This document shows, piece by piece, positions 8,156-46,747 of a stretch of DNA of 64,000 bases. Below the pieces are notes generated by a model. The model was not told where the DNA came from. It searched no databases and was given only the letters and a program-made list of their open reading frames with translations. Within the stretch, counting starts at the first letter, position 1, and every line of letters starts with the position of its first letter. The stretch comes from Candidatus Limnocylindrales bacterium (GTDB lineage: Bacteria > Chloroflexota > Limnocylindria > Limnocylindrales > CSP1-4), in NCBI GenBank assembly GCA_035540555.1, contig DATLGJ010000021.1, positions 4,492-68,491 of the forward strand, given 5' to 3'. The position numbers were made by a program, and so were the translations under genes.

Positions 8156-10153
8156 CTACTCCTCCTCGACCTCCGGCCCACGGCGCCGACGGAGGGCCAA
8201 AAAGCCGACCACTCCCAGGGCCGCCAGCGCGAGCAGGCCGAGAATCATCGGCATGTTGTCCCCGCCAGCCGGGTTCGTCGGGCCCCCGGGGCCGGCCCCC
8301 GGCGTCGCGGCCGGGCTGCCCCCGGGCTGTCCGGGGGTGGCCGCCGCCGGGTCGGTCGTGTCGGGCGTCGCCGCCGGTCCGCCGGGCGTCTCGCCGGCAG
8401 CCGGCGTTTGCTCACCTGGGGCAGGCGTCGGCTCGCCGGTGGCGGGGGTGGCGGCCGGCTCCTCGCCGGCCGGGGTCAGCGCGCCATATCCGAACGAGCC
8501 GTAGTTGAACAGCGGCACGCCGTCCTCGGGCTGGTTCTGCCAGCCTGTGAAGCGGTCGGTTCGATACGCGGCCAGCACGTCGTCGTAGTAGAGGATGTGG
8601 TAGGGCGCCTCGTCGTAGATCAGGTTCTGCATGCGGGCCAGGATCTCTGCCCGCTCCTCGGTGGACTCCGCGCGGTTCTGCTCCTGGAACATCTGGTCGT
8701 ACTCGGGGTTGCAGTAGAGGGAATCGCTTGACTGCCCGATCTGATCGCAGGTGAAGATTTCGAGCAGTGAGTTGGGATCGATGTCGCCGCCCCAGCCCCA
8801 GATGAACATGTCGAAGTCAGCGTTGTACTCATCGCCGGCCTCCGGCGGCAGGAGCAGCTCGCCGAGCGCGCCACTGTCCATCTGCTGCGCCGAGACGCCG
8901 ATCCCCAGCTCGCCGAACCAGTCGGCGATGAACTGGCCGGCCGCGGCGTAGTCCTCCGAGCTGTCCGGGAAGTAGAGCCGCAGGTTGATCGGGTTGCCGT
9001 CCTGGTCAAGGCGCCGGCCCTGGTCGTCGAGCTCATAGCCGGCGGCCTCCAGGCGGCTGCGTGCCTCGTCCAGGTCGAAGGTGCGCAGGTTGTCGGGCTG
9101 GACGTGGTATTGCGTCTGGAACGGCGGCACGTGGCTCGCGCCGGGCTCGCCGTACCCGTTGAGCAGCCGCTCGACAAGCAGCTCACGGTCGATGGCATAG
9201 CCGAGCGCGTCGCGGAAAGCCGCGTCCTGCAGGGCCGGGGTGGACGCACCGCCCCCACCTTCGATCACGTTGCCCGTACCTGTGCCGTAGGTGTTGAAGG
9301 CAAGCTCCGTGTAGCCGTTGCCCTGGCCGTTCACGGTCACGATGCCCTCGTCGCTGGCCAGCCGGTCGAAGTGCTCGGCCGAAACGTTATGGGCGTAGTC
9401 GAGCTCGTTGTTGCGCAGCGCCTCGGCCATCGAGGCCGAGTCGCGAAAGATCTGGATGACGAGACGGTCGGCGGCGAGCGTTGGGCCGTCGTAGTGGGGG
9501 TTGCGCTCGAACTCCACTCGTTGGCCGGTCACCCAGTTGACTGCCTGGTACTTGCCCGTGCCCACGACCGGCGCCTCGTTGGGATCCTCGTCGAAGTTTC
9601 GATCCTCCCAGATGTGCCGAGGCAGGATCGGGATGTACATGTACAGGACCTGCGTGTTGGGGCGGTCGGTGGTGATGACCAGCGTCTGCGGGTCGGTCGC
9701 CTCGACCGAGGTGACCCCCGCGTTGGTCAGGTACGGGTCGAGGTACCCGTAGCCGACGTAGCCGTTCTCGTCGACGAGCTCGAGCATTCGGTTGAAGGTG
9801 AATGCAGCGTCCTCGGCCGTGGCCGGCTCTCCATCGGACCAGCGCTTGTCGGGGCTGATCGTGAAGGTCCAGGTCAGCCCGTCATCGGACTGCTCCCAGG
9901 CCTGCGCGAAGGCGGGCATGGGCTGCAGGTTCTCGTCCCACTCCACCAGCAGCTCGTAGTTGAGCGCAAAGACCTCGAAACCGACCACCAGGTAGGTGAT
10001 GAAGGGGCTCATCGAGTCCAGGTCCTGCGTCGTGCCCACGCGCAGCACCAGATCGTCCTGCGCCCGGGCCACCCCGGCGGGCAGCACCAGCGCCACGGCC
10101 AGCAGGGGCACGAGCCCGATCCGGGAGATACGGGTGAACGCCGACCGTCGCAT
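8156..10153 (-). CDS. ABC transporter substrate-binding protein, family 5 (peptide/nickel), with a Pro/Thr-rich linker and C-terminal transmembrane anchor
   Basis: The start was taken at ATG 10153, preceded by GGAGGAGG. A signal peptide (MRRSAFTRISRIGLVPLLAVALVLPAGVARA) is followed by a family-5 SBP-like body. The last 108 aa are a P/T/G/A linker, then MPMILGLLALAALGVVGFLAL-RRRRG. Confidence 0.85.
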   Translation of the reverse strand: MRRSAFTRISRIGLVPLLAVALVLPAGVARAQDDLVLRVGTTQDLDSMSPFITYLVVGFEVFALNYELLVEWDENLQPMPAFAQAWEQSDDGLTWTFTISPDKRWSDGEPATAEDAAFTFNRMLELVDENGYVGYGYLDPYLTNAGVTSVEATDPQTLVITTDRPNTQVLYMYIPILPRHIWEDRNFDEDPNEAPVVGTGKYQAVNWVTGQRVEFERNPHYDGPTLAADRLVIQIFRDSASMAEALRNNELDYAHNVSAEHFDRLASDEGIVTVNGQGNGYTELAFNTYGTGTGNVIEGGGGASTPALQDAAFRDALGYAIDRELLVERLLNGYGEPGASHVPPFQTQYHVQPDNLRTFDLDEARSRLEAAGYELDDQGRRLDQDGNPINLRLYFPDSSEDYAAAGQFIADWFGELGIGVSAQQMDSGALGELLLPPEAGDEYNADFDMFIWGWGGDIDPNSLLEIFTCDQIGQSSDSLYCNPEYDQMFQEQNRAESTEERAEILARMQNLIYDEAPYHILYYDDVLAAYRTDRFTGWQNQPEDGVPLFNYGSFGYGALTPAGEEPAATPATGEPTPAPGEQTPAAGETPGGPAATPDTTDPAAATPGQPGGSPAATPGAGPGGPTNPAGGDNMPMILGLLALAALGVVGFLALRRRRGPEVEEE

Positions 10154-18159: not shown

Positions 18160-18891
18160 ATGGATCAGACGACGGGCGGCGACGAGGTTCGCCGCAGCGC
18201 GGAGAGCACGGTCTCGACGATCGCCGAGCAGGCCCAGCAGACGGCCGAGGCGCACGTCTCGACACAGAAGGATCAGGCCGCCAGCGCCCTGCACTCGGTC
18301 GCCGAAGCGGTCCGACGCAGTGGCCAGGATCTGGGCGAGGAGCAGCCTCAGCTGGCCTCGTTGGCCAATCAGGCAGCCGACCGGGTTGACCGGGCGTCCG
18401 ACTACATTCGGAGTCACGATCTGCGCGACTTCGTGCGCGAGGCGGAAGGCTTTGCTCGTCGCGAGCCGATGATCTTCCTGGGCGGCGCCTTTGCCCTGGG
18501 CTTCCTCGCCGCGCGCTTCATCAAGGCCTCCAGCCCGAGCCAGGGCCAGGGCGGTTACGGCGCCACGGGTGGCTACGGCGCGACCCGTGGCTACGGCGCG
18601 ACCGGTGGCTACGGCGCCGCTGGCGGCTACGGCAGCCAGGGTGGCTATGGCGCGACCGGCAGCTACGGCAGCCAGGGCGGCTACGGCGCGACCGGCGGCT
18701 ACGGCAACCAGGGCGGCTTCGGGGGCTATGACGCCTACGCCGACAGCGAGCGCGAACGCAGCCTCGGCACGGCCGGTACGCTCGGCGAGACAGAAGGCCT
18801 GCGCGATGGCAGCGGCCTGACCGACGCCGACACCGGCGCGGCCGAAGAGGAGACGGTCGGCGGCTCGACGCTCCGCTCGGGCGGAAGCTGA
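18160..18891 (+). CDS. membrane-anchored stress-type protein with a (GGYGAT)n low-complexity tail
   Basis: A helical, Ala/Gln-rich N-terminal half is followed by one hydrophobic helix (MIFLGGAFALGFLAARFI). Ten Gly-Tyr hexapeptide repeats and an acidic tail follow. An RBS-like gggggacaccc precedes the ATG. Confidence 0.7.
   Translation: MDQTTGGDEVRRSAESTVSTIAEQAQQTAEAHVSTQKDQAASALHSVAEAVRRSGQDLGEEQPQLASLANQAADRVDRASDYIRSHDLRDFVREAEGFARREPMIFLGGAFALGFLAARFIKASSPSQGQGGYGATGGYGATRGYGATGGYGAAGGYGSQGGYGATGSYGSQGGYGATGGYGNQGGFGGYDAYADSERERSLGTAGTLGETEGLRDGSGLTDADTGAAEEETVGGSTLRSGGS
18550..18729 (+). repeat. in-frame 18-bp tandem repeat, 10 units, encoding GGYGAT-type hexapeptides
   Basis: Read directly from the sequence. 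The units are GGYGAT, GGYGAT, RGYGAT, GGYGAA, GGYGSQ, GGYGAT, GSYGSQ, GGYGAT, GGYGNQ and GGFGGY. The DNA unit is approximately ggctacggcgcgaccggt. Confidence 0.95.
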
Positions 18892-18899
18892 GTCGCGCG

Positions 18900-19298
18900 A
18901 TGACCAACGCCCCGCGCGAAGAGCGCTCGCTTGGCGACCTCTTCGCCGAGCTATCCCAACAGGTCTCGACCCTTGTTCGCAAGGAGTTCGAGCTGGCCCG
19001 CCACGAGCTGACGCGATCGGCCACCCGGCTCGGGCGGGCGGCGGCCCTCATCGCGGTTGGCGGCCTGCTGGCCTACGCTGGTCTGATCGTGCTTCTGATC
19101 GGGCTCGGCTTCCTGCTGGCAACCCTCGGGCTGCCGACATGGCTGGCGCTGCTCGTGGTGGGCATCGCCGTCGTCGCGATCGGCGGCTTCCTCGCCTGGC
19201 ACTTTCTCAATGAGATGAAGAAGACGGCGATAGTGCCCGAGCGGACGGTCGAGACCATCCAGGACAACGTCCAGTGGGCAAAGGAACAGACCGAATGA
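18900..19298 (+). CDS. holin-X / DUF1469-like small membrane protein (YqjE-like)
   Basis: The N-terminus reads SLGDLFAELSQQVSTLVRKEFELARHE, followed by two long hydrophobic helices. This matches my recollection of the actinobacterial 'phage holin family / Holin-X' proteins. Confidence 0.65.
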   Translation: MTNAPREERSLGDLFAELSQQVSTLVRKEFELARHELTRSATRLGRAAALIAVGGLLAYAGLIVLLIGLGFLLATLGLPTWLALLVVGIAVVAIGGFLAWHFLNEMKKTAIVPERTVETIQDNVQWAKEQTE

Positions 19299-20206
19299 AT
19301 GAGCAACACCAGCGCGACGATGCGTCCGAGGTGGACATCACCGAGGAGCAGATCGTCGTTGAAATCGAGCACACCCGCGCCGACATGAGCGGCACGATCG
19401 ATGAGATCGGCCACCGGCTGAATCCGCAGACGATTGCCAGCCAGGCGCGCGACCAGGTACGGGAGGCAACGGTAGGACGAGTGGAACGCTTCGTGGAAGA
19501 CGCGGGTCAGACCGCGCAGGAAACCAGCAACACGGTTATCGACACGCTTCGCCAGAACCCTGTGCCGGCGGCGCTCGCCGCAATCGGCATCGGCTGGCTG
19601 GCCATGCGCGCGCGCGACGCCTCGTCGGGCAACGGCGGGTCACGTCGGAGTGACTATCGCTACGCCAACACGCCGCACGGCTACGCTGACTACGCCACCG
19701 GGTACGGCGGCGCCGGTGGCTACCGTGGCTCAGGCACTGGCTATCAGGGCGTCGGCTCCGGCGCTGGCTACCAGGGCGGCCAGGTCGTGGGCGACCGCAT
19801 GTCCGAGGTGGGCGACCGCATGTCCGAGGCAGGCGACCAGCTTCGGCAGCGGACCGACGAGATGGGCCAGCAGGCTCAGCGCGTGGCCGACGACGTGGCC
19901 CAGCGATCACAGCAGGCCCTGTCGGACGCGCAGTGGCAGGCGGAGCGAGCCGCGGGCCAGGCGCAGCGACAGTTCGACCGCACGCTCCAGGAAAACCCCC
20001 TCGCGCTTGGCGCGCTGGCGATCGGCGTCGGCGCGGCGGTTGGCCTGGCCATTCCCGAGACGCGCCGCGAGCGCGAGCTGATGGGCGAGCAGCGTGACCG
20101 CCTGGTTCACCAGGTCGAGCAGGCTGCCACCGAAGCGCTGGGGCAGGCCGAGCAGGCCGCCCGCGAGACCGGCGAGCAGCTGCAGGAGGAGGCCCGCCAG
20201 GGCTGA
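19295..20206 (+). CDS. DUF3618-like membrane protein with Gly/Tyr-rich segment and coiled-coil
   Basis: The start at 19295 overlaps the preceding stop (ATGA). The N-terminus reads EEQIVVEIEHTRADMSGTIDEIGHRLNP (DUF3618-like). A hydrophobic segment is followed by GYADYATGYGGAGGYRGSGTGYQGVGSGAGYQGG, a Gln/Ala/Arg-rich helix and a second hydrophobic segment. Confidence 0.65.
   Translation: MNEQHQRDDASEVDITEEQIVVEIEHTRADMSGTIDEIGHRLNPQTIASQARDQVREATVGRVERFVEDAGQTAQETSNTVIDTLRQNPVPAALAAIGIGWLAMRARDASSGNGGSRRSDYRYANTPHGYADYATGYGGAGGYRGSGTGYQGVGSGAGYQGGQVVGDRMSEVGDRMSEAGDQLRQRTDEMGQQAQRVADDVAQRSQQALSDAQWQAERAAGQAQRQFDRTLQENPLALGALAIGVGAAVGLAIPETRRERELMGEQRDRLVHQVEQAATEALGQAEQAARETGEQLQEEARQG
19787..19828 (+). 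repeat. perfect 21-bp tandem duplication (2 copies) inside the DUF3618-like CDS
   Basis: gtgggcgaccgcatgtccgag occurs at 19787-19807 and again at 19808-19828. It encodes VGDRMSE-VGDRMSE. Confidence 0.95.
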
Positions 20207-20227
20207 CACCGACTGCAAACGCACGTC

Positions 20228-20264
20228 AAAAAGGGCCGCCCCGCTGGGGGCGGCCCTTTCTTTT
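20228..20264. terminator. bidirectional intrinsic terminator between convergent genes
   Basis: aaaaa, then gggccgcccc (20233-42), loop gctg, ggggcggccc (20247-56), then tttctttt. The 10-bp GC stem is perfect and has A- and T-runs on either side. Confidence 0.85.
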
Positions 20265-20310
20265 GGTGCGCTCGTCAGTCGACGCTCGCTGGCCTATGCC
20301 GGGCGACGCC

Positions 20311-21672
20311 TCAGATGAGCTTGCACGCGGTCACGGCACCCGCCGCGTTGAGCGTAAGGCGCAGCTTGACGTTCACACCGACCACCACCGTCAAAGGCAG
20401 GCTGACGCCGGCCTTGATCTTGAAGGTCTGGCCGCCGACAGTGATCGAGCCCGCAGTCAGGAGCGTCGCGGGTACGTAGGCCGACACCTTGCCGGAGACG
20501 GTCACGTGCGCGCTCACGAACGTGCACAGGTCAACCAGGCCCGCTGTATTGAGGCGCAGCTTGAGGCTGACGTTGACACCAACCTTGACCGCAGCCGGAA
20601 GGCTGACTCCCGCCTTGATCTTGTAGACCTTGCCACCGATGGTGATGGAACCGGTCGTCGTGGCTGTCGCCTTGACGTAGGCCGTCACAAGGCCGCTGGC
20701 GCTGACCGTCGCGCCCGCCAGGGTGCAGCCGGTGATGGCCCCAGAGGAAACCTTCAGGTTGACGTTGACCACGGCGCCAAGCTGGACGCCGGCCGGGAGC
20801 GTGACACCGGCCTTGATCTTGAGCTTGACCCCGCCGATCGTGATCGAGCCGGCGGTCGTGGCGGTCGCCTTGACGTAGGCCGTCACCTTGCCCTGCAGGG
20901 TCAGGTCGCCGGCCACGATGGAGAGGACATTGCACCCCGTGACAAGGCCAGCGGCGTTCAGCAAGAGGTCTGCCTTGAGGTTGACGCCGACCTTGACGTA
21001 CGCCGGCAGGCTGACCCCGGCCTTGATCTTGAAGGTCTGGCCGCCAACCGTGATCGAGCCGTTGCTGGTCGCAGTGGCCTTGACATAGGCAGTGATCAGC
21101 CCCGAGACGGCAACCTTGGCGCTGACCAGGGCGCAGGCGGTGATGAGGCCGGATCCATTGAGCGTCAGGTTGAGCTTCACCCAGGCCCCGACCTTCACTC
21201 CCGCGGGCAGGCTCACCCCGGCCTTGATCTTGTACGCAACCCCGCCGATGGTGATCGAGCCGTTGGTCGACGCGGTCGCCTTGGTATAGGCCGTTACCGT
21301 GCCGGATGCGGTGAGCTTCAGGCTGACGAGCGTGCAACCGACGATCAACCCGTTGAGATTGAGGCTGATCCTGAGCTGCGCCCAGACGCCGACCTTGAGG
21401 TGGGACGGCATGCTGGTGCCGGCCTTGATCTTGTACGCAACCCCGCCGATGGTGATCGAGCCGTTGGCCGCGGCGGTGGCCTTGACGTATGCGGTCACCT
21501 TGCCCGAGACGGTGACCCCGACCCCGACCAGTTGGTTCTGAACGGCCGGCGTAGACGCCGTCTCTGTGTACGCAGCGGCCGCCCTCCCGGACGGGGCGCC
21601 CAGGCTGGTCGCGACCAGAAGTGAGACCGCCAGGACCCCGACCGAGATGCGTAGCCGTGTTAACCGTGACAT
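20311..21672 (-). CDS. secreted repeat protein: signal peptide plus six tandem 67-aa beta-rich repeats, one Cys per repeat
   Basis: ATG 21672 is preceded by GGGAGGAG. The signal peptide reads MSRLTRLRISVGVLAVSLLVATSLGAPSGRAAAA. Six units follow, each of the form SG-x-VTAYVKATA-x3-GSITIGG-x3-KIKAGVSLPA-x-VKVG-x-V-x-L-x-L-x-LN-x2-GL-x3-C. The Cys residues are at 113, 180, 247, 316, 383 and 450. Confidence 0.85.
   Translation of the reverse strand: MSRLTRLRISVGVLAVSLLVATSLGAPSGRAAAAYTETASTPAVQNQLVGVGVTVSGKVTAYVKATAAANGSITIGGVAYKIKAGTSMPSHLKVGVWAQLRISLNLNGLIVGCTLVSLKLTASGTVTAYTKATASTNGSITIGGVAYKIKAGVSLPAGVKVGAWVKLNLTLNGSGLITACALVSAKVAVSGLITAYVKATATSNGSITVGGQTFKIKAGVSLPAYVKVGVNLKADLLLNAAGLVTGCNVLSIVAGDLTLQGKVTAYVKATATTAGSITIGGVKLKIKAGVTLPAGVQLGAVVNVNLKVSSGAITGCTLAGATVSASGLVTAYVKATATTTGSITIGGKVYKIKAGVSLPAAVKVGVNVSLKLRLNTAGLVDLCTFVSAHVTVSGKVSAYVPATLLTAGSITVGGQTFKIKAGVSLPLTVVVGVNVKLRLTLNAAGAVTACKLI
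20314..21516 (-). repeat. about 201-bp in-frame tandem repeat, 6 units
   Basis: Spacing between TAY motifs is 67, 67, 70, 66 and 67 aa. A 49-nt perfect match (21218-21266 vs 21419-21467) lies exactly 201 nt apart. Confidence 0.9.
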
Positions 21673-21870
21673 TTCGCTCCTCCCGTGCTGATGACGTGTG
21701 GCGGCACGTTAGGCACGGGAATGACCGACACCGACCCTTGCCGGCAGTCCATTTCATTACGTGGGCATATACCACCCCCGATAGTGGTGACCACGCGCAA
21801 CAAGCGTCGGTGGATGGCTGGGTCAACAGTGCACATACTCATGGATGGCCATGTCAGGCCGTACGAGCAC

Positions 21871-21901
21871 AAAAAGGGGGCCGTCCGTCGGGACGACCCC
21901 C
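21871..21901 (-). terminator. intrinsic terminator downstream of glnA
   Basis: The minus strand reads GGGGGUCGUCC-CGAC-GGACGGCCCCC-UUUUU. The stem is 11 bp with one G-U pair. It lies 20 nt after the glnA stop. Confidence 0.8.
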
Positions 21902-21920
21902 ATGCGCAGCAGAGTGACTG

Positions 21921-23306
21921 CTAGAACGCTTCGAGGTAGCGCTCGATCTCCCAGGACGAGACCTGCATGCGGTACTCGTCCCATTCATGGCGCTTCGCCT
22001 CGACGAAGCGACTGAAGATGTGCTCGCCGAGGGCATCGCGGATGACGTCGTCCTGCTCGAGCTCGTCGATCGCCTCGCCCAGGGTCCCGGGCAGCTCGCG
22101 GATGCCGCGCTCCCGAATACGCTCTGGTGTCATCTCGTAGAGGCTCTCCTCAACAGGGTCGGCCAGCTCCATGCCCTTCTCGATGCCGTCGAGGCCGGCG
22201 GCCAGCATGGCGGCAAAGGCGAGGTAGGTGTTCGAGGCTGGATCCGGACAGCGCACCTCGAGCCGCGTGGCCTCGATCGACCGGCCGGGCGAGACCTTGG
22301 GCACGCGGATGAGCGCCGAGCGGTTGGTTCGTCCCCAGGTCAGGTAGGTCGGTGCCTCGTAGCCCGGCACCAGCCGCTTGTAGGAGTTGACCAGGGGCGC
22401 CAGCACCGCGCTCATGCCCCGTGCGTGGGCCAGCACGCCCGCCGCATAGGATCGAGCGAGGTCGGACAGGCCGTACTTGGCGTCCGGATCGGCAAAGGCA
22501 TTTCGACCGGCCGAGATGTCGTACAGGCTCTGGTGCGTGTGCATGCCCGAGCCGTTGATGCCGAAGATCGGCTTGGGCATGAAGGTCGCGTACAGGCCGT
22601 GCAGCTGGGCGACGGCCTTGAGCGTGAACTTGAAGGTGACCGCGTTGTCGGCCGTGCGCAGGCCGTCGGCGTACTCGAAGTCGATCTCGTGCTGACCGGG
22701 CGCGACCTCGTGGTGAGCTGCCTCGACGCGGATGCCGAAAGCCTCCAGCGCGTTGACCATGTCCTGCCGCACTTCCTGGGCAAGATCGGTCGAGAAGTCG
22801 AAATAGCCGGCGCTGTCGTGAGGCAGTGCCTTGAGCGCGCCGTTCTCCCGTCGAAAGAGGAAGAACTCGAGCTCCGGACCTGCGTTCCAGACGTACCCCA
22901 GCGCACGTGCCCGCTCCAGCTGGCGCTTGAGGATGTAGCGCGGGTCGCCCAGGAAGGGATCGCCGTTCGGTGTGAACACGTCGCAGATGACACGGGCGGT
23001 GCCCCGGCTGCCCAGGGGTCCGGCTCCCTGGCTGCCGTGACCGGGCTGCCACGGGATCTCGGCAAAGGTGTCCATATCCGGCTTGAGGTACTGGTCGCTC
23101 TCGGCGATGCGGGTGAACCCCTCGACCGAGCTGCCGTCGAACCAGGTGCCGTGCTCGACCGAGCCGGCGAGCTGGTGGAGCGGGATGGTGACGCTCTTGA
23201 CCGATCCGATGATGTCGGTGAACTGAAGCTGAACGAAGCGGATGTTGTTCTCCTTGGCCGCCTCTATCTTCTCCAGCGCGCTCTTCTCGCCGAGATCCAT
23301 GACCAT
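21921..23306 (-). CDS. glnA: glutamine synthetase, type I
   Basis: Family motifs are present: FTDIIGSVKSVTIP, GPELEFFLF, HHEVAPGQHEIDF, GSGMHTHQSL, NSYKRLVPGYEAP and RVPKVSPG. The start is at ATG 23306 (or 23300). Confidence 0.93.
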   Translation of the reverse strand: MVMDLGEKSALEKIEAAKENNIRFVQLQFTDIIGSVKSVTIPLHQLAGSVEHGTWFDGSSVEGFTRIAESDQYLKPDMDTFAEIPWQPGHGSQGAGPLGSRGTARVICDVFTPNGDPFLGDPRYILKRQLERARALGYVWNAGPELEFFLFRRENGALKALPHDSAGYFDFSTDLAQEVRQDMVNALEAFGIRVEAAHHEVAPGQHEIDFEYADGLRTADNAVTFKFTLKAVAQLHGLYATFMPKPIFGINGSGMHTHQSLYDISAGRNAFADPDAKYGLSDLARSYAAGVLAHARGMSAVLAPLVNSYKRLVPGYEAPTYLTWGRTNRSALIRVPKVSPGRSIEATRLEVRCPDPASNTYLAFAAMLAAGLDGIEKGMELADPVEESLYEMTPERIRERGIRELPGTLGEAIDELEQDDVIRDALGEHIFSRFVEAKRHEWDEYRMQVSSWEIERYLEAF

Positions 23307-26480: not shown

Positions 26481-27710
26481 CTACGCCGGGGTGGCCACCG
26501 TGGCGGCACCGGAGCCGGCCCGGCGGGCTGCCGCCAGGCCCGACTTGAAGTCGGCCACCAGGTCAACCTCGTCCTCCAGCCCGACAGAGACGCGGACCAG
26601 GCCGACCGGGATCCCGGCCGCGGCCAGCTCTTCGTCGCTCATCTGCCGGTGGGTGCTTGACGGCGGGTGGACGCAGATGGTGCGCACGCTGCCGAGTGAC
26701 GCCGTTCGCGGCGGGATCGACAGGCCATCGACGAAAGCCGCTGCCGCCTCGCGGCTCGGCAGCTCGAAAGCGAGCATCCCGCCAGGCCCGTCCAGCAACC
26801 GCTCGGCAACCCGATGCTGGGGATGCGATGGCAGGCCGGGATAGAAGACGCGCTCGACCGTGGGATCAGCTTCAAGCGCCTCGGCCAGCACCCGCGCGCT
26901 GCGCACGTGGCGGTCCATTCGGACGTGCAACGTCTCGATGCCCCGCAGCACCAGGAAGGCCGACATCGGCGCGGCGCTGGCACCGGTATCGATCTGGAAC
27001 AAGCGCACCCGCTCGATCAGCTCGGTCGACCCGCAGACCACGCCGGCGAGCACATCCGAGTGCCCGCCGAGCCACTTCGTCGCCGACTCGATGACCAGAT
27101 CCGCGCCGTGCTCCATGGGCCGGCACAGGTACGGCGAGGCAAACGTGTTGTCGACCGCCACCAGCAGCCCGTGGCGGTGGCCCAGGTCCGCGAGCGCGGG
27201 CAGGTCCGACACGACGATGGTCGGGTTGCTGATCGTCTCGAGGTAGAGCAGCCGGGTCCGTCCGGTGATCGCGTCGGCGACCGCCCGATGATCCGTTGCG
27301 TCGACCCAGCTGACGTCGATGCCCAGGCGCCTCAGTCTCCGCTCGAAGAGGACGTATGTGCTGCCGTAGACGGCGCGAGTGGCGACGATATGATCGCCCT
27401 CCCCGAGCAGCGCGAGCAGGGCGCCGTGGATCGCGGCCATGCCTGAGGCAAATGCGTAGCCGGCCGGCGCCCCTTCCAGCTCGGCCACCGCCCGGGCCAT
27501 GGCATCCGTCGTCGGGTTGTCCAGGCGAGCGTAGGCATAGCCCGGCCGGCGGTCGCCCAGGATTTCGCCCAGGTCGGCCGAGTCGGTCGCGCTGAAGGTC
27601 ACCGACTGGTAGATCGGGACTGCGTCGGGCTCCTGCTCGACCTTTGGCTGGCGAGTCGCCGCGCGGATCGCGCGTGTGCCAAAGCCGGAGGCCGTGCGCT
27701 CACTGCTCAC
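26481..27710 (-). CDS. Cys/Met-metabolism PLP-dependent enzyme (cystathionine gamma-synthase / O-acylhomoserine sulfhydrylase / gamma-lyase family)
   Basis: PIYQSVTF, YARLDNPT and the PLP-lysine motif ESATKWLGGHSD are present. Length is about 409 aa. Confidence 0.85.
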   Translation of the reverse strand: MSSERTASGFGTRAIRAATRQPKVEQEPDAVPIYQSVTFSATDSADLGEILGDRRPGYAYARLDNPTTDAMARAVAELEGAPAGYAFASGMAAIHGALLALLGEGDHIVATRAVYGSTYVLFERRLRRLGIDVSWVDATDHRAVADAITGRTRLLYLETISNPTIVVSDLPALADLGHRHGLLVAVDNTFASPYLCRPMEHGADLVIESATKWLGGHSDVLAGVVCGSTELIERVRLFQIDTGASAAPMSAFLVLRGIETLHVRMDRHVRSARVLAEALEADPTVERVFYPGLPSHPQHRVAERLLDGPGGMLAFELPSREAAAAFVDGLSIPPRTASLGSVRTICVHPPSSTHRQMSDEELAAAGIPVGLVRVSVGLEDEVDLVADFKSGLAAARRAGSGAATVATPA

Positions 27711-37622: not shown

Positions 37623-37697
37623 TGGTCGGGGCGGCGGGATTCGAACCCGCGGCCTCGTGCTCCCAAAGCACGTGCGCTACCACTGCGCTACGCCCCG
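37623..37697 (-). tRNA. tRNA-Pro (anticodon UGG)
   Basis: The reverse complement reads CGGGGCG-UA-GCGC-AGUGGUA-GCGC-A-CGUGC-UUUGGGA-GCACG-AGGCC-GCGGG-UUCGAAU-CCCGC-CGCCCCG-A-CCA. It is 75 nt with an encoded CCA. Confidence 0.93.
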
Positions 37698-37927
37698 ACG
37701 TGAATCACGCTCAGTAAGCCTACATAACTCCGTCTGAACGTCGATTTAGGCTACCCCAGCGAACGCGGCCTGGCCCGCGTCAACAGGTTCATCACCGTCC
37801 GGACCTCCCCGACCCGCCTAGCGGAGGGTGAGGCGGCCGGACACTAGATGTTCGCCCGGTGCGCAGCCATACTCCGGCTGGCGCGTGTATGGGCACGGCT
37901 TGACAGATCATCGACGAAGGCGAGGAA

Positions 37928-38857
37928 GTGGCCAACAAGGCGGGCGACCTAAGCGATGTGGCGGTAGTTGGCACTGGTTTTGCCGGCCTGTCTACCGCTA
38001 TCGGCCTGCGCCGCCATCGGCTCAGCACAATTGCGTTTGATGGTGGACCGGTGCGCAACGAGCAGGCGAGCGAGGTGCACGGCTACCTTGGTGCCGCCGG
38101 CCTACCAGCCAAGGAGCTGCGCGATCGAGGGCGCACACAAGCGATCGAATTGGGCGCGCAAATCGTCGAAGCGCAGATCGAGCAGGTCGAACGGACCGGC
38201 GAGGTATTCATGCTGCGCGATGTTCAGGGCCGAACCTATGGTGCCCGGCGACTGGTATTGGCCACCGGTGTCGTGGACCAGCTGCCCGAGATAGCCGGGC
38301 TCGGGTCTTTTTTCGGCCGATCAGTCCATGTCTGCCCGCATTGCGATGCTTACGAGTGGCGCGACCGACCGATCGCGATCATCGGAGATACGGCGGAGCT
38401 GCGCGACTTTGCAATCAAGTTGAGCCATTGGAGCGCTCGGGTCACAGTAGTCGGCGACAACCGTCCGACCAGGGTCGAGGAGTCGGACCGCACGATCCTG
38501 GCGGTTCACGGCATTGGCGTGATCGAGACGGGCATCGATCGACTCGAGGGCGAGGACGGCCAGTTGAGCGCGATACGCTTCCTCGACGGCGAGGTCTTGG
38601 CTGTTGATGCGGCGTTCTGTCACGCCGACCAAACCTACCGCACCGAGCTCGCTGAGGCACTGGGCTGCAAGCTCACCGAGGCAGGAGCGATCGAAGTTGA
38701 CGACGAGGGGCACGCCAGCGCCGAGGGAGTGTGGGCAGTCGGTGATGTCGCCGGCGACTCCCAGTTCGTCTCGGTTGCGGTGGCTCACGGCATCAAGGCT
38801 GCGGCCGACATTTATCGCACGCTCGCCGAGACAGACCCCGACACAAAGGAGCCGTAG
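37928..38857 (+). CDS. thioredoxin-reductase-like NAD(P)/FAD-dependent oxidoreductase
   Basis: The motifs are VAVVGTGFAGL, the redox CxxC (VCPHCDAYE), a second nucleotide fold (IAIIGDT) and a C-terminal GVWAVGDV. It uses a GTG start. Confidence 0.75.
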   Translation: MANKAGDLSDVAVVGTGFAGLSTAIGLRRHRLSTIAFDGGPVRNEQASEVHGYLGAAGLPAKELRDRGRTQAIELGAQIVEAQIEQVERTGEVFMLRDVQGRTYGARRLVLATGVVDQLPEIAGLGSFFGRSVHVCPHCDAYEWRDRPIAIIGDTAELRDFAIKLSHWSARVTVVGDNRPTRVEESDRTILAVHGIGVIETGIDRLEGEDGQLSAIRFLDGEVLAVDAAFCHADQTYRTELAEALGCKLTEAGAIEVDDEGHASAEGVWAVGDVAGDSQFVSVAVAHGIKAAADIYRTLAETDPDTKEP

Positions 38858-38872
38858 ATTGCCTCACCGCCG

Positions 38873-39145
38873 ATGACGAAGAAATTGGCGTTGGCGGTCT
38901 TGCTGGTAGTGGCGTGTGGAGGCAGCCCGCCTGCAACGCCGGACCCCGGCGCCCCCACGCCGTCCGCTCCAGCCGAGCACGACATCGCAGCCTATGTGGT
39001 CGATCCGCTCAGCTCATAGCTGCTGCGGCGGTATGGCCTCGAGCCGGCAGGACCGAGCGAGTCGTCGACCTATCAGGTCACGGGGCCGGATGAAGGGGGC
39101 TGGGACATTTCGCTCGACGCATCACGAGAGATCGGTCTCGACTAA
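38873..39145 (+). pseudogene. small lipoprotein gene interrupted by an in-frame TAG
   Basis: The ATG at 38873 opens MTKKLALAVLLVVAC-GGSPP (signal peptide plus lipobox). A TAG lies at 39017-39019. The same frame stays open for 41 more codons (LLRRYGLEPAGPSESSTYQVTGPDEGGWDISLDASREIGLD) to the TAA at 39143-39145. Confidence 0.45.
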
Positions 39146-39505
39146 TCGCGCTGAGAGGCAGGCCCGTCGAGATGAGAACAACACCGGTCGTGGGCAATCT
39201 GGGGCCGCAGCATGATTGTGTGGGCTGCAGGCGGGCGAGTCCACGTCCTGGTAGTCAACCAGCAGGTCGTTGGCGCGTGGCTCAGCCGAGCGAGCGCCCC
39301 GTCGTGGGCAGGCGCTCGAGGGAGTTGCAGGCCGTAGCGCCGACCGAGGAAGACGTCGTCACGGAGATGGCGCGCTGCCTGCGAGAGATTGCCGCCGGCC
39401 GCTCGCCCAAATAGCCGCCTGGGCGGCAGCGGTAGACCGGCGGCGACGGGGCGCCACTGGGATAATTTCTATCCGGCGTTCTCAAGGCAGTAGGGGAGCA
39501 ATGCC

Positions 39506-39844
39506 ATGCCAAGCATCGAGTCACGCCCGTTCACATCGGCCGACGAGAGCCGCTCCGGCAATGGGGTCGAGGCGCACTACATCAAGCTGGGCAACGTCGA
39601 GTTTGCCCATTTGAGCTACGAGCCAGGCTGGCGCTGGTCGGAACGCATCAAGCCTGTTGCGGGTACCGAGAACTGCGAGGTCGAGCACGTCGGCTATGTC
39701 CTCTCGGGAGCCGCGCACTTTGTTCATTCCGATGGCACTACGCAGGAGGTGGCGGCCGGATCGGTCTACCGGGTAGAGCCTGGCCACGACGCGTGGGTCA
39801 TTGGCGATGAGCCCTACGTCGTACTTGAGCTGTACACCGACTGA
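39506..39844 (+). CDS. cupin-domain protein
   Basis: This 112-aa ORF has a single beta-barrel-like pattern (EVEHVGYVLSGAAHFVHSDG...GSVYRVEPGHDAWV). Confidence 0.6.
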   Translation: MPSIESRPFTSADESRSGNGVEAHYIKLGNVEFAHLSYEPGWRWSERIKPVAGTENCEVEHVGYVLSGAAHFVHSDGTTQEVAAGSVYRVEPGHDAWVIGDEPYVVLELYTD

Positions 39845-39946
39845 GGTGCTCAGTGGTCGGCAGACCTGAGGCACGACCGCCGAGCGCGAGATGGCGCCGT
39901 GTCATTTCGGGCGGTCAGCTGGGGCGGGGGAAACAAGAACCCCCTG

Positions 39947-40855
39947 CTACGGCCAGGGCGGGTCAGCGACAGCACGGGCGCCAGGCCGAGCCGAGAGCTG
40001 TTCGAGCCATGCAGCAAAGTCGTAGCGTGGGTGAAAACCGAGCTCCTTGGCGAGTCGGCTGACCGGAAATACCTCCGTGATGGGTTTTAGCGACCGGACG
40101 CCACGAGCGCGGAGCAGTTCGGACGATCCTGGCAAGTGGCGCTCGAGCGCCGCCAAAGGATCGCGTCGCAGGTCAGGCGCATCCTCCACCGTGAACGGCA
40201 CCGGCGCCTCCACGTTATACGCCCCATAAGCCACTTCGCCGCGCCCCAAGGCAGCGAGCGCCGCCAATACGGCGTCCGCGGCGTCGACCTCATCGACACC
40301 GCCGTACAGGAGGCGTATGCCGTACCGGAAGAACGACTCCGGGACGAACATTCCGAAGCGGAGCGCTATCGACGGAATCCCGTGATCGCGCCAGTGGTAA
40401 GCGCACAGCTCCTCGCCGACGACCTTGCTCCAACCGTAGATGTCAGACGGGCGTAACGGAACCCCCTCCTCCACGAACGCGACGGCGTCATTCGCGCTCG
40501 GCGTTCGGCTTTCGCCGTAGACACCCATCGTGCTACTGAAGACGACGCCCCCGACTCCGTGCTCGACGGCGGCCTGCCAGACGTTGAACGTCCCCGTGAC
40601 GTTGAGGTCGTAGAACTCCCGTAGTGAGTGATCACGCAGATGGATGCCGTGGAGGGCGGCGGCATGGACGACCATGTTTACGCCGCGCGTCGCCGACGAC
40701 ACGAACTTCCCGTCTCGCACGTCGCCGACGACGCCCTCGGCCACATCGCTGCTGGGCACGAGGTCCAAGGCAACCGGCTCATGACCTGCCTCGATCAGTC
40801 GAGGAATGAGGGCCCGCCCGAGAGTGCCGGCAGCGCCAGTTACGAGGACGCGCAT
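39947..40855 (-). CDS. NAD-dependent epimerase/dehydratase family protein
   Basis: The motifs are MRVLVTGAAGTLG (Rossmann) and catalytic Y-x3-K (YGWSK). The start was taken at ATG 40855. Confidence 0.8.
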   Translation of the reverse strand: MRVLVTGAAGTLGRALIPRLIEAGHEPVALDLVPSSDVAEGVVGDVRDGKFVSSATRGVNMVVHAAALHGIHLRDHSLREFYDLNVTGTFNVWQAAVEHGVGGVVFSSTMGVYGESRTPSANDAVAFVEEGVPLRPSDIYGWSKVVGEELCAYHWRDHGIPSIALRFGMFVPESFFRYGIRLLYGGVDEVDAADAVLAALAALGRGEVAYGAYNVEAPVPFTVEDAPDLRRDPLAALERHLPGSSELLRARGVRSLKPITEVFPVSRLAKELGFHPRYDFAAWLEQLSARPGARAVADPPWP

Positions 40856-41024
40856 GCGCAGATCATCACACGCCGTACGACCCTGGCTCACCCTCCAACT
40901 TGAATGGTCCCTCGCCGATGTCCGGTCAGGCCTCGCCCTTGTCGCCCATGTCCATGGTGGGCATCCAACTTCAGACTGGGTCAGAGCGTGCGCAGCGGGA
41001 GCGACGTCGCCGGTGGACGGCGGC

Positions 41025-41891
41025 TCAGGCGATCAGGGCGTCCAAGACGTCCGCAAACGCGCTGCCCGTGTGGAGGCTGAGATGGCCGTCGCCCGAGCGA
41101 AAGTGTGCGCGCGCTGTCGGTATGTGGGACGCCAGCCATTCGCCATGTGCGGGATGGACGCCGCGGTCGTCTGCGCCATGCCAAACGTGAACGAGCGCGG
41201 TAATCGAGGTCGCGTCGAATCCCCAGTCACCTACGAAGGCACGCTCGTCGTCAAACCAGCCCCCATAGGAGTCGCTCAGGGCTGTTCGGAATAGGGCCGC
41301 GATCCAGTCACTGAAACCCGGTGAGAGAGCCTGGAGATCGGCTCCGGCAAACTCGCCAGCCACCAACTCTTTGAACTCCTGACCCGTCAGACCACGCATC
41401 ACTGGCCAACGCTGCTCGATCTCCTCGCGCAACGCGTCGGGCCCGTTGAGTGCGGCGCTGACCAGGCGATCGTCCGGGCCTGGTCGCCACCCTAAATCAG
41501 GCGCGCGGTAGGGGGCGACGCTGCCGATCGTCGCCACGCCGATCACCCTTGTTGGCAGCAGGGCAGCCAGGGCGAGCGCGTGCGGTCCACCACCCGACCA
41601 GCCAAGGGCGTAGGCCCGCTGAGCGCCGATGTAGTCGAGGGCAACGGAGGCATCGGCGGCAACGCTCGCAACGTCCCGCCCGGGCCGGCGCGTCGATCCG
41701 CCATAGCCAGGCCTGCTCCATGCGACATAGCGAAGTCCACGTTCGGCCAGCGCACTCAGGTTCTCTTCGTAGGGCAGGCCGGTGGCAGGCGTTCCATGCT
41801 GGTACAGCAGGGGGATCCCGTCATCCGGTGAAAGATAGAGTTCCAGTGTCGCCCGGTCGTTGGTGGGTATCAGGATCGGCTCGTACACCAC
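41025..41891 (-). CDS. alpha/beta-fold hydrolase
   Basis: An HG oxyanion motif (LLYQHGTPA) and the nucleophile elbow GWSGGG are present. Length is 288 aa. Confidence 0.72.
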   Translation of the reverse strand: MVYEPILIPTNDRATLELYLSPDDGIPLLYQHGTPATGLPYEENLSALAERGLRYVAWSRPGYGGSTRRPGRDVASVAADASVALDYIGAQRAYALGWSGGGPHALALAALLPTRVIGVATIGSVAPYRAPDLGWRPGPDDRLVSAALNGPDALREEIEQRWPVMRGLTGQEFKELVAGEFAGADLQALSPGFSDWIAALFRTALSDSYGGWFDDERAFVGDWGFDATSITALVHVWHGADDRGVHPAHGEWLASHIPTARAHFRSGDGHLSLHTGSAFADVLDALIA

Positions 41892-42102
41892 GCAACCATG
41901 CCACAGCGGTACACCCCGGCCTCGTGGCGTCGCCCATTTCCCGCCGGCCTTCGGCGCTTAGTCGAGCGTGGCTCGCGTGCCCAGCCTCCACGAAGAGTCA
42001 GAGTGATCCGCGACGGCCTCCAGTGCGAAGTAGTAGTACGGCCGGCAGTGCAGGCGGTCATCGACCGCCCGCTGCAGGATCCGATATCGGGAGGACCCAT
42101 AG

Positions 42103-42738
42103 ATGGTCCAATCCTTCCAAGTAAGACAGCGCTGGCTGGGAGCCGGGCTGCTGGTGGCATTCGTCGCCACCCTGGCACTCGGGATCGGCATGGCACTCGC
42201 GTCGCCTGCCGTCGCGGGGCACAACTCGGCAGCCGGAGCCGCCAAGGGCACGACAGGCGGCTGGCTCGACGGTCGAGAAGTCACCTTTTTCTATCCCAAG
42301 GACTTCTTCTGCTCGCAGCCACCGAGCAGCGATGCGGCGTCCGGCTGCGAGGTCGGCGCTGAGCCTGAGCGGGCCCCGCGCCCCGGCGGAGGCCTTCCTG
42401 TGCTCTACGTCATGACGCCTTTCGGCATCAACGTCGACGCAGGTACGCTTCAGTGCCCGACCAGTGGCGAGTGCATCAACCACCCCGGCGACCTGGACGT
42501 TTCGCGCCTGCTGGGACCCGGTGCGGTGATCCCTCTGCCGCCGCACAGCCACATCGTCGATGTGGCCAAGGGTGGATGGTGGGAGATCGAGGTGATCCTT
42601 GTGACGGACGAAGAGGTCTGGAACGAGATCGCTCAAGCCAAGGATCTGGCCACCGTGCGTGCCCTACAGGACGCCGGAGTCGGCATCACTGGCGACATCC
42701 CGACCAACCTCTTCCTGTTCTTCAACGTGCAGAACTGA
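42103..42738 (+). CDS. secreted protein of unknown function (4 Cys, HSH motif)
   Basis: A GGGAGGA RBS precedes the start. The signal peptide ends ..ALASPAVA-GH. The mature part has two Cys pairs (FFCSQ..SGCEV and LQCPTSGEC) and PPHSHIVD. I recognise no family. Confidence 0.6.
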   Translation: MVQSFQVRQRWLGAGLLVAFVATLALGIGMALASPAVAGHNSAAGAAKGTTGGWLDGREVTFFYPKDFFCSQPPSSDAASGCEVGAEPERAPRPGGGLPVLYVMTPFGINVDAGTLQCPTSGECINHPGDLDVSRLLGPGAVIPLPPHSHIVDVAKGGWWEIEVILVTDEEVWNEIAQAKDLATVRALQDAGVGITGDIPTNLFLFFNVQN

Positions 42739-42794
42739 GATCAACTCAGCTGGCGGGTCGCTCGACGGCCCGCCAGCTGGCCGGAGGCCTCTCG

Positions 42795-43661
42795 ATGAAC
42801 AGCGTCGCCCTCACCCCAGCGTCGAGCATGCGCTCGAGGCTGCGCAACCTTGCGCCCCAGCCCCTTGTTTCCACGGTAGGCGGAATGATGGTTGGGATCG
42901 GAGCAGTCCTACCCTGGATCACCTTGTATGCCGGTCATGTCGCCCTACGTGGCATCGACGGACCAGCTGGACTCGCCCTGGCCCTGGTGGGTGCCGTCGT
43001 CGTCGTGCTCGGCGTCATCTCGGTGCGCAGCAGCGCAGCAAGCGTGATCGCCGTCCGGCGGATGATGGTCGTTGCGGTGGTGCTCATCGTGACCTACCTG
43101 CTCGTGCAATTGGTCATAACTCACGCTCAACTGGCCGCAGAGCCGTTGCTCTTGGCCGCACTGGGCCCAGGCATGTTCGTGGCGGCCGCGGGTGCGAGCC
43201 TGATGGTCATTGCCGAAGCGATGCCTCTGCTTCGGGTGACCAGGCCATCCCGGCGCAGCTGGCCGGCCAGAATGCTGACTGGCGCGGCGGTCGTCGGCCT
43301 GCTCGTCGCCGGATCCATTCATCTCGGTTTGGCGCCCGGGCACCTTGGCGCGTCGCCGGTGTTGGCGCTGGGCTTCCTGGGTGCTGGGCTTGCCCAGGCG
43401 ACCTTGGCGCTCTTCCTGATTGTCGGAGGGAGTCGGCGCACGCTGATCAGCAGCGCGGTGCTGTCGGTTGGGCTACTTGGGCTCTATGGGATCGACCTAT
43501 TGATCGGATTGCCGTTCGTGGGCCACGCTGCGCTGCACGCCCAGGCGGAACTGCACGCCCATGGAGCGGCGGGCATCGACCTAGCTGGAGTGATTGCCAA
43601 GTCCGCCGAATTGGGAACCATCATTGCAGCGGTCGCCGCGCTGCGAGAACATCACCGCTAG
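42795..43661 (+). CDS. polytopic membrane protein of unknown function (His-rich C-terminal half)
   Basis: It starts 56 nt after the preceding gene on the same strand. It has about 8 hydrophobic helices. His-containing loops read SIHLGLAPGHLG and FVGHAALHAQAELHAHG. I recognise no family. Confidence 0.55.
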   Translation: MNSVALTPASSMRSRLRNLAPQPLVSTVGGMMVGIGAVLPWITLYAGHVALRGIDGPAGLALALVGAVVVVLGVISVRSSAASVIAVRRMMVVAVVLIVTYLLVQLVITHAQLAAEPLLLAALGPGMFVAAAGASLMVIAEAMPLLRVTRPSRRSWPARMLTGAAVVGLLVAGSIHLGLAPGHLGASPVLALGFLGAGLAQATLALFLIVGGSRRTLISSAVLSVGLLGLYGIDLLIGLPFVGHAALHAQAELHAHGAAGIDLAGVIAKSAELGTIIAAVAALREHHR

Positions 43662-43676
43662 TCGGGGCGGGTGAGA

Positions 43677-45002: not shown

Positions 45003-45007
45003 CGGCG

Positions 45008-45841
45008 TCAGGCCGAGGCCCGCGGCCGAACCGGCTGTCGCGAACGCTGCGCGTTGATTGCGTCGCGACGGTTGAGCCAGAGTTGGCCTTGTGCGACCTG
45101 CCAGTCGGGTCCGTTGAAGCCGAGCGTGAACTGCGTAAAGCCGATCTCGAGGTACGTTTCGAAGTCTCGCTCGAGGAACCGATCCAGATCGTATGGCTCC
45201 ACGCCGACTGCCCACTCAATGTCGTTCGCATCACGACCGATCTCGGCGCACCACCGGCGAAGTGCCGCGACCTTGGGCAGCACCTCGTCCGGCCGGTCGG
45301 GAAAGCCGACGTGCCAGGCGTCGGCGTACCGCGCGACGAGCCTCGTGGTGAGCTGCTCGCCGCCGCCAGCGATCAGCAGAGGCATGGTTCCGAGAGGCGG
45401 CGGGTTGAGCACCTGGAGTCGGTGGCGTATCCGGGGCAATGACTCGCCAAGCTGGCGCAAGCGAGCAACTGCGTCCGGGAACACAAAGCCGTACTCGCGA
45501 TAGTCCCTCTCGAACCAGCCGGCACCGAGACCGAGAGTCAGCCGGCCGCCGCTGATGTGGTCGACCGTTCGAGCCATGTCGGCCAGTAGATCGGGGTTCC
45601 GGTACGAGTTACAGGCGACGAGTGGACCCAGTGCGATCCGGCTGGTTGCCTCCGCCCAGGACGCAAGAAGCGTCCAGCACTCGTAGTGCTGCCCGCTCCC
45701 TTTGCCGTACAGCGGAGAGAAGTGGTCCCACGTGTAGAGCGCGTCGTAGCCCAGCTCCTCGGCCTGCACGGCGGCTCCGCGGAGGGCCGGCAGGTCGCCA
45801 TGCTGCGGGTGCAGTTGCGCGGCCACGCGTATTGGTTTCAC
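45008..45841 (-). CDS. LLM-class (luciferase-like) flavin/F420-dependent oxidoreductase
   Basis: Typical motifs are present: YDALYTWDHF, NPDLLADMARTVDHISGGRLTLGLGAGW. GTG 45841 is preceded by GGTGAGGAG. Confidence 0.78.
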   Translation of the reverse strand: MKPIRVAAQLHPQHGDLPALRGAAVQAEELGYDALYTWDHFSPLYGKGSGQHYECWTLLASWAEATSRIALGPLVACNSYRNPDLLADMARTVDHISGGRLTLGLGAGWFERDYREYGFVFPDAVARLRQLGESLPRIRHRLQVLNPPPLGTMPLLIAGGGEQLTTRLVARYADAWHVGFPDRPDEVLPKVAALRRWCAEIGRDANDIEWAVGVEPYDLDRFLERDFETYLEIGFTQFTLGFNGPDWQVAQGQLWLNRRDAINAQRSRQPVRPRASA

Positions 45842-45885
45842 GGTCTCCTCACCTGCGTGCGTCGCCAGTGCGAGCACCGTGAGGG

Positions 45886-46730: not shown

Positions 46731-46747
46731 AGTCCCGCCGGCTTCGC

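Follow-up and report, generated by a model that had tools for sequence, protein, structure and literature searches.

A predicted exported, lysine-rich array of six DUF5666-type domains encoded by a Candidatus Limnocylindrales contig

The basic surface-layer (S-layer) proteins of Lactobacillus are Sec-exported proteins of approximately 40-50 kDa with an isoelectric point (pI) of approximately 10 that are rich in Lys, Thr, Ala and Val; their genes are monocistronic with a long leader and a strong terminator, and the proteins are held non-covalently on anionic wall polymers. The SasG/Aap G5-E repeat and Rib-domain proteins are stiff surface rods of small beta domains that are LPXTG-anchored and usually acidic, and the endospore appendages of Bacillus (Ena, DUF3992) are disulfide-cross-linked, extracellular and beta-rich, with conserved Cys residues and a jellyroll fold. 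Here we describe a 453-amino-acid (aa) protein that is compared with these systems. It is encoded on a 64,000-nucleotide (nt) stretch of contig DATLGJ010000021.1 from a Candidatus Limnocylindrales bacterium (the whole stretch analysed, hereafter the window), and consists of a predicted signal peptide and six tandem units of the Pfam family DUF5666 (PF18914). In the papers found, DUF5666 is mentioned only as a domain of unknown function, in table listings; one distant member ranks among the 20 proteins of highest abundance in Dissulfuribacter thermophilus (PMC13490349).

The gene occupies positions 20311-21672, as had been read earlier from the sequence alone, and lies on the minus strand, which that reading had left unstated. 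It is a real, well-formed gene; the G+C contents at its three codon positions (0.57/0.51/0.88) match the pattern of coding sequences in this window of 69% G+C. An open reading frame (ORF) of equal length on the plus strand (20263-21624) lacks this pattern. The start codon is an ATG at 21672 of the minus strand, preceded by GGGAGGAG at 21684-21677. A database entry (P0001 = HVM30043.1), annotated as a hypothetical protein of a Candidatus Limnocylindrales metagenome-assembled genome (Chloroflexota), is 100% identical to the 453-aa protein. The features of the gene are as follows.

20311..21672, minus strand: complete coding sequence, 453 aa plus stop; signal peptide, short linker and six DUF5666-type units
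21677..21684, minus strand: Shine-Dalgarno sequence GGGAGGAG, read from the sequence, with a GGAGG core that stops 6 nt short of the ATG
21574..21672, minus strand: predicted Sec signal peptide, residues 1 to approximately 33, by heuristic N-terminus analysis
21334..21534, minus strand: unit 1, residues 47-113; Cys113 codon at 21334-21336
21133..21333, minus strand: unit 2, residues 114-180; Cys180 codon at 21133-21135; the unit modelled singly (see below)
20932..21132, minus strand: unit 3, residues 181-247; Cys247 codon at 20932-20934
20725..20931, minus strand: unit 4, a 69-aa variant, residues 248-316; Cys316 codon at 20725-20727
20524..20724, minus strand: unit 5, residues 317-383; Cys383 codon at 20524-20526
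20314..20523, minus strand: unit 6, a terminal 'cap' unit with YVPATLLT and a KLI tail, residues 384-453; Cys450 codon at 20323-20325

The six units were found to be 67-69 aa in length with one Cys each, at residues 113, 180, 247, 316, 383 and 450, and the translation thus agrees with the unit count and Cys positions of the sequence-only reading. The same reading had described a strict 201-bp period with strictly periodic Cys residues, which did not hold: the Cys spacings are 67, 67, 69, 67 and 67 aa, unit 4 has 69 aa, and a repeat search recovered six 170-nt copies (61-72% identity) at spacings of 201, 198, 210, 201 and 201. The motifs that it had quoted for all units are only a consensus, since unit 2 has VTAYTKATA, unit 6 has VSAYVPATL, unit 4 has VQLG, and units 3 and 6 have GSITVGG in place of GSITIGG. 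Identity between units was 48-69% at the amino acid level and 57-70% at the nucleotide level, and the array was not detected by Tandem Repeats Finder because the copies are too diverged. The VPATLLT signature of the terminal unit is shared with the homologues P0005, P0006, P0014, P0016 and P0088.

A resemblance to DUF5666 had been suggested earlier, and the Pfam search bore it out. The protein scored 30.0 bits against PF18914, a small margin above the gathering score of 27 (E 6.2e-7, four matched stretches), and PF18914 was also present in the precomputed database annotation of the identical protein. Units scored singly against PF18914 reached 14-18 bits, and units 4 and 5 alone gave no match. 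The homologue P0018 scored 49.5 bits against DUF5666, and many homologues carry a precomputed PF18914 annotation. These findings place the protein in DUF5666 by the curated Pfam threshold and, as single units reached only 14-18 bits, in a divergent branch of the family. The NCBIfam search of the protein gave no match; SLH, CWB2 and SLAP-like S-layer or wall-binding modules were absent, and Pfam and NCBIfam together showed only DUF5666. CnaB, thioester and pilin domains gave no Pfam match either, and each unit contains 0-1 Asp/Glu residues, none of them conserved; the protein thus falls outside the isopeptide-, thioester- and ester-bond adhesins (CnaB, TED and Cpe0147 types).

In the AlphaFold2 model of the whole protein, built from a 58-sequence alignment, the predicted local distance difference test score (pLDDT) was 90.5 and the predicted template modelling score (pTM) was 0.67. 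The chain was modelled as all-beta after residue 45, with five strands per unit, and one unit modelled alone also gave five strands with a pLDDT of 95.4. Both models are in line with the small beta-barrel per unit that had been suggested from the sequence. Strands 109-129, 175-196, 243-266, 311-332 and 379-399 crossed the unit boundaries unbroken, and because they run straight over these boundaries, the barrels are predicted to be fused and not joined by flexible segments. Foldseek comparison of the whole model with the PDB returned nothing significant, and the best probabilities were to proteins with an oligonucleotide/oligosaccharide-binding (OB) fold. The single unit gave only weak OB-fold matches (E 0.13-2, template modelling (TM) score 0.4-0.57). 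Over both searches, the best hits were HIN, Ten1, the SilB C-terminal domain, RPA, CcmE and CspA. Four matches to viral models at E <=1e-3 had uninformative TM scores of 0.10-0.18; the matched proteins are uncharacterised or unnamed and of giant-virus type. When PDB chains were searched by sequence with the orthologue profile, no match was found even at E 10.

Heuristic analysis of the N-terminus gave a tripartite organization of the Sec type, in keeping with the signal peptide proposed in the sequence-only reading. The n-region is MSRLTRLR (net +3) and the h-region is ISVGVLAVSLLVATSL, with a 16-residue hydrophobic core in which a 12-aa window had a mean Kyte-Doolittle value of 2.7; after it comes a stretch rich in Ala, in which AxA sites occupy residues 31-34. 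The AlphaFold2 pLDDT was below 50 (disordered) across residues 1-45. No lipobox Cys was found, there being no Cys before residue 113, and the RLTRLR of the n-region contains no RR pair and hence no twin-arginine motif; the protein is thus neither a lipoprotein nor a Tat substrate by these features. The same Sec-type N-terminal anatomy was found in all orthologues checked.

A word-indexed search returned 67 homologues, and an exhaustive profile search of 1.84 billion representatives returned only 242 at E <=1e-3, with 58 reaching E <=1e-30; by these counts the homologue family is rare. Homologues were sorted by inspection into four groups, A to D. The basic group A (P0001-P0006, P0014, P0016, P0068, P0088, P0099, P0114 and P0128), a rare subfamily of about a dozen clusters to which the 453-aa protein belongs, has 2-6 units, a pI of approximately 10, K+R well above D+E, one Cys at the unit end and no anchor. 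Group B is acidic, and each of its units contains two Cys (VCG... and ...xCL...); a Pro/Ser-rich linker leads to a C-terminus in which an LPxTD-like motif is joined by a hydrophobic segment and by a stop-transfer sequence rich in Arg. Group C is almost uncharged (P0025 has 0 D/E and 3 K/R in 490 aa) and ends in a conserved PLSAT motif, which may be a processing or sorting signal. Group D has extra C-terminal domains, in one case a Vgb_lyase-type propeller. An LPxT-like motif followed by a hydrophobic segment and an Arg-rich tail occurs, for example, in the distant relatives P0060, P0063, P0066, P0007 and P0010, and LPSTG/LPSTS motifs occur in P0063, P0066 and P0060. The anchors of group B and these LPSTG/LPSTS motifs indicate that the domain family is located outside the cell. 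Together, the Sec-type N-termini of the protein and its orthologues and the C-terminal anchors, membrane-type or sortase-like, that its distant relatives often have support export to a surface or extracellular location. The 453-aa protein itself ends in ...AAGAVTACKLI and has no LPXTG sorting signal, and it is thus not a member of the sortase-anchored class.

Two further observations were made on the loci of relatives. Group C relatives were found as tandem paralogues (L011:5225-8473 and 8685-10070) adjoining a PMT_2-type glycosyltransferase. The acidic, membrane-anchored P0010 and P0008 (L008:8605-9534 and L010:8593-9549) share a conserved downstream gene for a protein of approximately 310 aa, with hydrophobic membrane-like segments by eye and no Pfam match, followed by a LuxR-type response regulator with a GGDEF/HD-GYP protein nearby. 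These genes may form a regulatory module of the acidic, membrane-anchored subfamily; the arrangement is absent beside the 453-aa gene.

The composition of the protein sets it apart from its genomic surroundings. The mature protein, of approximately 41 kDa, contains 34 K, 3 R, 3 D and 1 E (four acidic residues in all), with a pI of 10.15, a grand average of hydropathy (GRAVY) of +0.73 and a net charge of approximately +33, so that the Lys-rich, acid-poor and strongly basic character noted in the sequence-only reading was found again. The charge amounts to +5 to +6 per unit, is evenly spread and is almost all due to Lys, and 46-52% of each unit is aliphatic or aromatic (Ala counted). Lys makes up 7.5% of the gene product, with a K/(K+R) ratio of 0.83 and D+E of 0.9%, compared to a mean Lys content of 1.2%, a pooled K/(K+R) of 0.11 and a mean D+E of 12% in the other 46 ORFs of the window. 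K exceeds R in the orthologues as well, up to 17:1 and 11:0, on contigs of 61-66% G+C. These findings clearly indicate that Lys has been specifically selected against a genomic bias towards Arg. The effective number of codons of the gene (Nc 36.5) is ordinary within the window, and codon bias is thus uninformative on its expression.

The ORFs of the window are in general extremely poor in Lys, and several of 250-370 aa contain none at all; those above 3% besides the 453-aa protein are glnA (3.3%), a PPK2-like ORF (5.4%) and a few others.

Among 41 distinct units from ten group A proteins, only G7, T16, G21, G27, G45 and C63 were invariant, and core positions varied (L50 76%, L54 85%, V9 85%). 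The Cys is thus as constrained as the structural glycines and, being present in 41/41 units, appears to be essential to the domain. In the alignment, the two Cys positions of groups B-D are occupied by Ser and by Lys/Ser in the 453-aa protein, and its own Cys aligns with Gly in distant members. The strand-register clues on burial were contradictory, position 59 being Q in most orthologues and position 65 being hydrophobic, and the Cys may be either a buried structural residue or a cross-linking site.

The history of the array was read from its orthologues and from a tract of identity between the first two units.

21218..21266: 49-nt tract in unit 2, identical to 21419-21467; encodes NGSITIGGVAYKIKAG
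21419..21467: 49-nt tract in unit 1, identical to 21218-21266

The homologues P0002-P0004, which are 53-59% identical to the 453-aa protein, have the same six-unit layout with near-identical unit lengths, the same enlarged junction between units 3 and 4 and the same distinct terminal unit. Since this layout and junction are shared at 53-59% identity, the array is old and predates the divergence from P0002-P0004. Direct comparison showed the 49-nt match to be exact, as had been claimed, with no extension on either side and against a background of 70% nt identity between units 1 and 2. At the corresponding position, the first unit of P0002 reads GGIRYGIKAG and the second GGKTYVIKAG. Because the array is old and orthologues differ between units 1 and 2 at this position, the match is probably a local gene-conversion tract. 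Of the two explanations offered in the sequence-only reading, recent expansion is thus not supported by the shared layout, and gene conversion stands as the best reading of the tract. Unit numbers differ between near-identical loci that come from different samples: P0006 (four units) and P0016 (three units) have identical ends and the same upstream DNA, and P0068 is a three-unit version of the six-unit P0002. These cases reflect either a real polymorphism, with unit number changing on short time scales, or assembly collapse. Loci of the P0006/P0016 type were observed at L005:3386-4342 and L007:4673-5428, which are near-identical with four versus three units.

We tentatively propose, with somewhat less than even confidence, that the protein is exported and forms a polycationic structural rod, which anionic polymers of the envelope or matrix would hold in place. 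The export signal, domain family, predicted fold, composition and domain architectures are those described above; the location, binding partner and assembly are our inference. After Sec export and removal of the signal peptide of approximately 33 residues, the six five-stranded, OB-like DUF5666-type barrels would form one stiff rod and not beads on a string, since the last strand of each barrel is predicted to continue into the first of the next. Multivalent electrostatic contacts of its Lys stripes with anionic wall or matrix polymers, probably together with lateral self-association of rods via hydrophobic contacts, would retain the rod at the surface or in the matrix, where its role would be that of a coat, a spacer or an element of the matrix. 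Within the basic subfamily, positive charge would do the work of the covalent or membrane anchors that relatives have, and recombination between units would change their number and hence the length of the rod. As the protein is an array only, with no anchor or other domain, the barrels themselves must carry the function, and the tethered relatives, whose only extracellular part is the array, likewise point to the barrel array as the functional part.

Several points weigh against this proposal. Pfam and NCBIfam gave no wall-binding, S-layer or anchoring domain, and genes for an assembly partner or for dedicated secretion were not found nearby. The anionic partner is hypothetical. Retention by charge accounts neither for the choice of Lys instead of Arg nor for the presence of the Cys in 41/41 units, the rarity of the family (242 of 1.84 billion representatives) speaks against a core envelope function, and the rod shape is drawn from the secondary-structure string and the pTM only.

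An alternative is a disulfide-cross-linked fibre or sheath, in which surface-exposed Cys residues would form intermolecular disulfides that join the proteins side by side or staggered into a covalent extracellular lattice; we consider this rather doubtful. The presence of the Cys in every one of the 41 units while core positions such as L50 (76%) and L54 (85%) vary is consistent with it, and so is the very hydrophobic character of the protein (GRAVY +0.73), which favours self-association. The orthologues counted have between 5 and 11 Cys residues, odd and even, and the odd totals of several (5, 7 and 11) indicate that not all Cys can be paired intramolecularly. Several orthologues also have an extra N-terminal CxxC-like pair and a C-terminal CxC that would suit head-to-tail linking, but both motifs are absent from the 453-aa protein. 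Moreover, units 1-3 of P0002-P0004 contain a second Cys (LPxC), likewise absent from the 453-aa protein, which may pair with the invariant Cys inside the domain. The strand-register reasoning on exposure is ambiguous, and no linked thiol-oxidoreductase gene was found.

A non-structural, soluble secreted binder is unlikely. OB folds are classic oligonucleotide- and oligosaccharide-binding modules, and in such a protein the Lys faces, and possibly the thiols, would bind an external polyanion or a soft metal, with extracellular DNA, polyphosphate, humic or mineral surfaces and Cu(I)/Ag(I)/Hg(II) as candidate ligands. The net charge of approximately +33 without an anchor would fit, as would the weak fold matches, which include RPA, HIN, cold-shock domains and the metal-binding SilB C-terminal domain. 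However, all of these matches were non-significant (E >0.1, TM approximately 0.5), metal cations should be repelled by so positive a protein, and the single thiol of a domain is not enough for chelation. Genes for uptake or for nucleases were not found nearby, and the PPK2 gene that lies beside two orthologues is not linked to the repeat gene here.

A combination of these elements with the proposed rod, in which reactive surface Cys and selected Lys residues cross-link rods by a disulfide ladder or by Lys-Cys bridges into a polycationic lattice or sheath, is improbable as well. Covalent Lys/Cys chemistry as the main role, through a Lys-Cys N-O-S bridge or through enzymes that use Lys as the nucleophile to cross-link the protein to the wall or to further subunits, is very unlikely. 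Other proteins do contain Lys-Cys redox bridges and isopeptide cross-links based on Lys, and the choice of Lys over Arg against the genome bias, here and in the orthologues, and the invariance of the Cys and of Thr16 would fit such chemistry. Nevertheless, the protein has almost no Asp/Glu to catalyse isopeptide formation, its neighbourhood contains no sortase, transglutaminase or modifying enzyme, and Pfam gave no match to CnaB, thioester or pilin domains. A mis-assembled array or a non-coding ORF of high G+C can hardly be credited: the array comes from a metagenome-assembled genome, no independent contigs turned up when the exact sequence was looked up, and unit numbers appear collapsed or expanded among near-identical database entries, but the units are only 57-70% identical in nucleotides, which makes mis-assembly unlikely, other samples have yielded six-unit orthologues whose unit lengths follow the same pattern, and the gene has a G+C of 0.88 at third codon positions (GC3), a Pfam match and a very confident fold prediction.

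The repeat gene stands alone and is monocistronic. Upstream on the same strand lies glnA, which has a terminator of its own and follows a PucR-type regulator and ResB. On the downstream side, a block of three plus-strand genes (18160-20206) converges on the repeat gene, and genes farther away are housekeeping genes. The features that flank the gene are as follows.

21876..21901, minus strand: terminator-like hairpin with T-run after glnA, by terminator scan; separates glnA from the repeat gene
20230..20259, plus strand by terminator scan: G+C-rich hairpin with flanking A- and T-runs; the minus-strand T-run (CCCTTTTTGACG) was read by inspection
18160-18891, plus strand: Gly/Tyr-rich ORF with a GGYGAT-type repeat run; no Pfam match
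18900-19298, plus strand: Holin-X (PF07332) protein
19274-20206, plus strand: DUF3618 protein with a Gly/Tyr-rich stretch

The hairpin at 20230-20259 is a shared bidirectional terminator for the repeat gene and the convergent DUF3618 gene, which itself contains two short tandem repeats (19727-19778, period 27, and 19787-19838, period 21). The isolation of the gene, its leader of approximately 200 nt (21673-21875), the glnA terminator and the bidirectional 3' terminator had all been described from the sequence; the terminator scan and inspection agree with them, and the neighbours are not conserved across the orthologue loci. An Rfam search of 19800-22400 gave only sub-threshold matches on the terminator hairpin and none in the leader, and no conserved element emerged when the leaders of five orthologue loci were aligned. 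A scan for sigma-70 promoters gave none; a candidate TGGTATAT (extended -10-like) was noted by eye at 21774-21767. No neighbour was common to the five orthologue loci, and no paralogue of the repeat gene was found within the window. A scan of representative genomes yielded two loci only. A PPK2 gene lies within 2-3 kb of two orthologues (L003:4504-5346 and L004:3300-4118). A functional link was rejected, the PPK2-like gene of the window (46748-47632, minus strand) being 25 kb away and approximately 33% identical, and the adjacency seems to reflect local synteny.

Elsewhere in the window, a tRNA-Pro(TGG) at 37623-37697 is followed by a drop in G+C from approximately 0.69-0.71 to 0.65-0.67 for approximately 10 kb (37623-48000), a region in which few ORFs pass the GC3 coding filter and which may be an integrated element or genomic island. 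ARAGORN called a tRNA-SeC at 26492-26586 (minus strand), in or overlapping the start of ResB and the end of a gene for a Cys/Met pyridoxal-phosphate enzyme; Rfam at the gathering score did not report a tRNA-SeC there, and the call is probably spurious.

Should the rod belong to the envelope or matrix, it would add to what is a poorly known cell surface, that of the Limnocylindria, uncultured Chloroflexota of soil and freshwater. An envelope or matrix role would also make the protein an easy experimental entry to DUF5666, through a soluble construct of 41 kDa and six Cys-to-Ser mutants. If the cross-linked lattice were true, it would be a previously undescribed type of Chloroflexota envelope polymer made from OB-like DUF5666 domains. 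The findings have no bearing on a long-standing open question.

Among the known systems, the basic S-layer proteins of Lactobacillus are similar in size, charge, composition, export and gene organization, by analogy only. In contrast to the 453-aa protein, they typically have no Cys and no regular tandem repeats, and no similarity in sequence or fold was found. The SasG/Aap and Rib rods, again by analogy, resemble the predicted rod of small beta domains, its variable repeat number and its proposed cell-surface location, but have other folds, and the ...TACKLI end of the 453-aa protein carries no sorting signal. Like Bacillus Ena, the protein is a predicted extracellular, beta-rich subunit with a conserved Cys, and some orthologues have terminal Cys motifs; unlike Ena, it has no DUF3992 match, an OB-like barrel and, in its 453-aa form, no terminal Cys connector. 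Tandem OB folds (RPA, EF-P, Unr cold-shock and HIN) are small five-stranded barrels, as the units are predicted to be, and OB-fold proteins gave the best Foldseek probabilities, none of them a significant match. However, they are cytoplasmic nucleic-acid binders with interdomain linkers, whereas the present protein appears to be exported and its strands are predicted to be continuous from barrel to barrel.

The closest comparison is with other DUF5666 proteins, which also have a short all-beta domain of approximately 60-67 aa, often in several copies, and are extracytoplasmic. The two Cys of close relatives, one in strand 1 (VCG) and one in strand 4 (xCL), are replaced here by Ser and Lys/Ser, and the one invariant Cys lies in strand 5, where relatives have Gly; moreover, the present subfamily is rich in Lys, nearly free of acidic residues and without an anchor. 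The question of what DUF5666 does is thereby sharpened to the selection of Lys, the invariant Cys and the strands predicted to be shared between neighbouring domains. With the family already catalogued in Pfam and the exact protein already deposited, the protein is unusual in its composition and is not a new kind of system.

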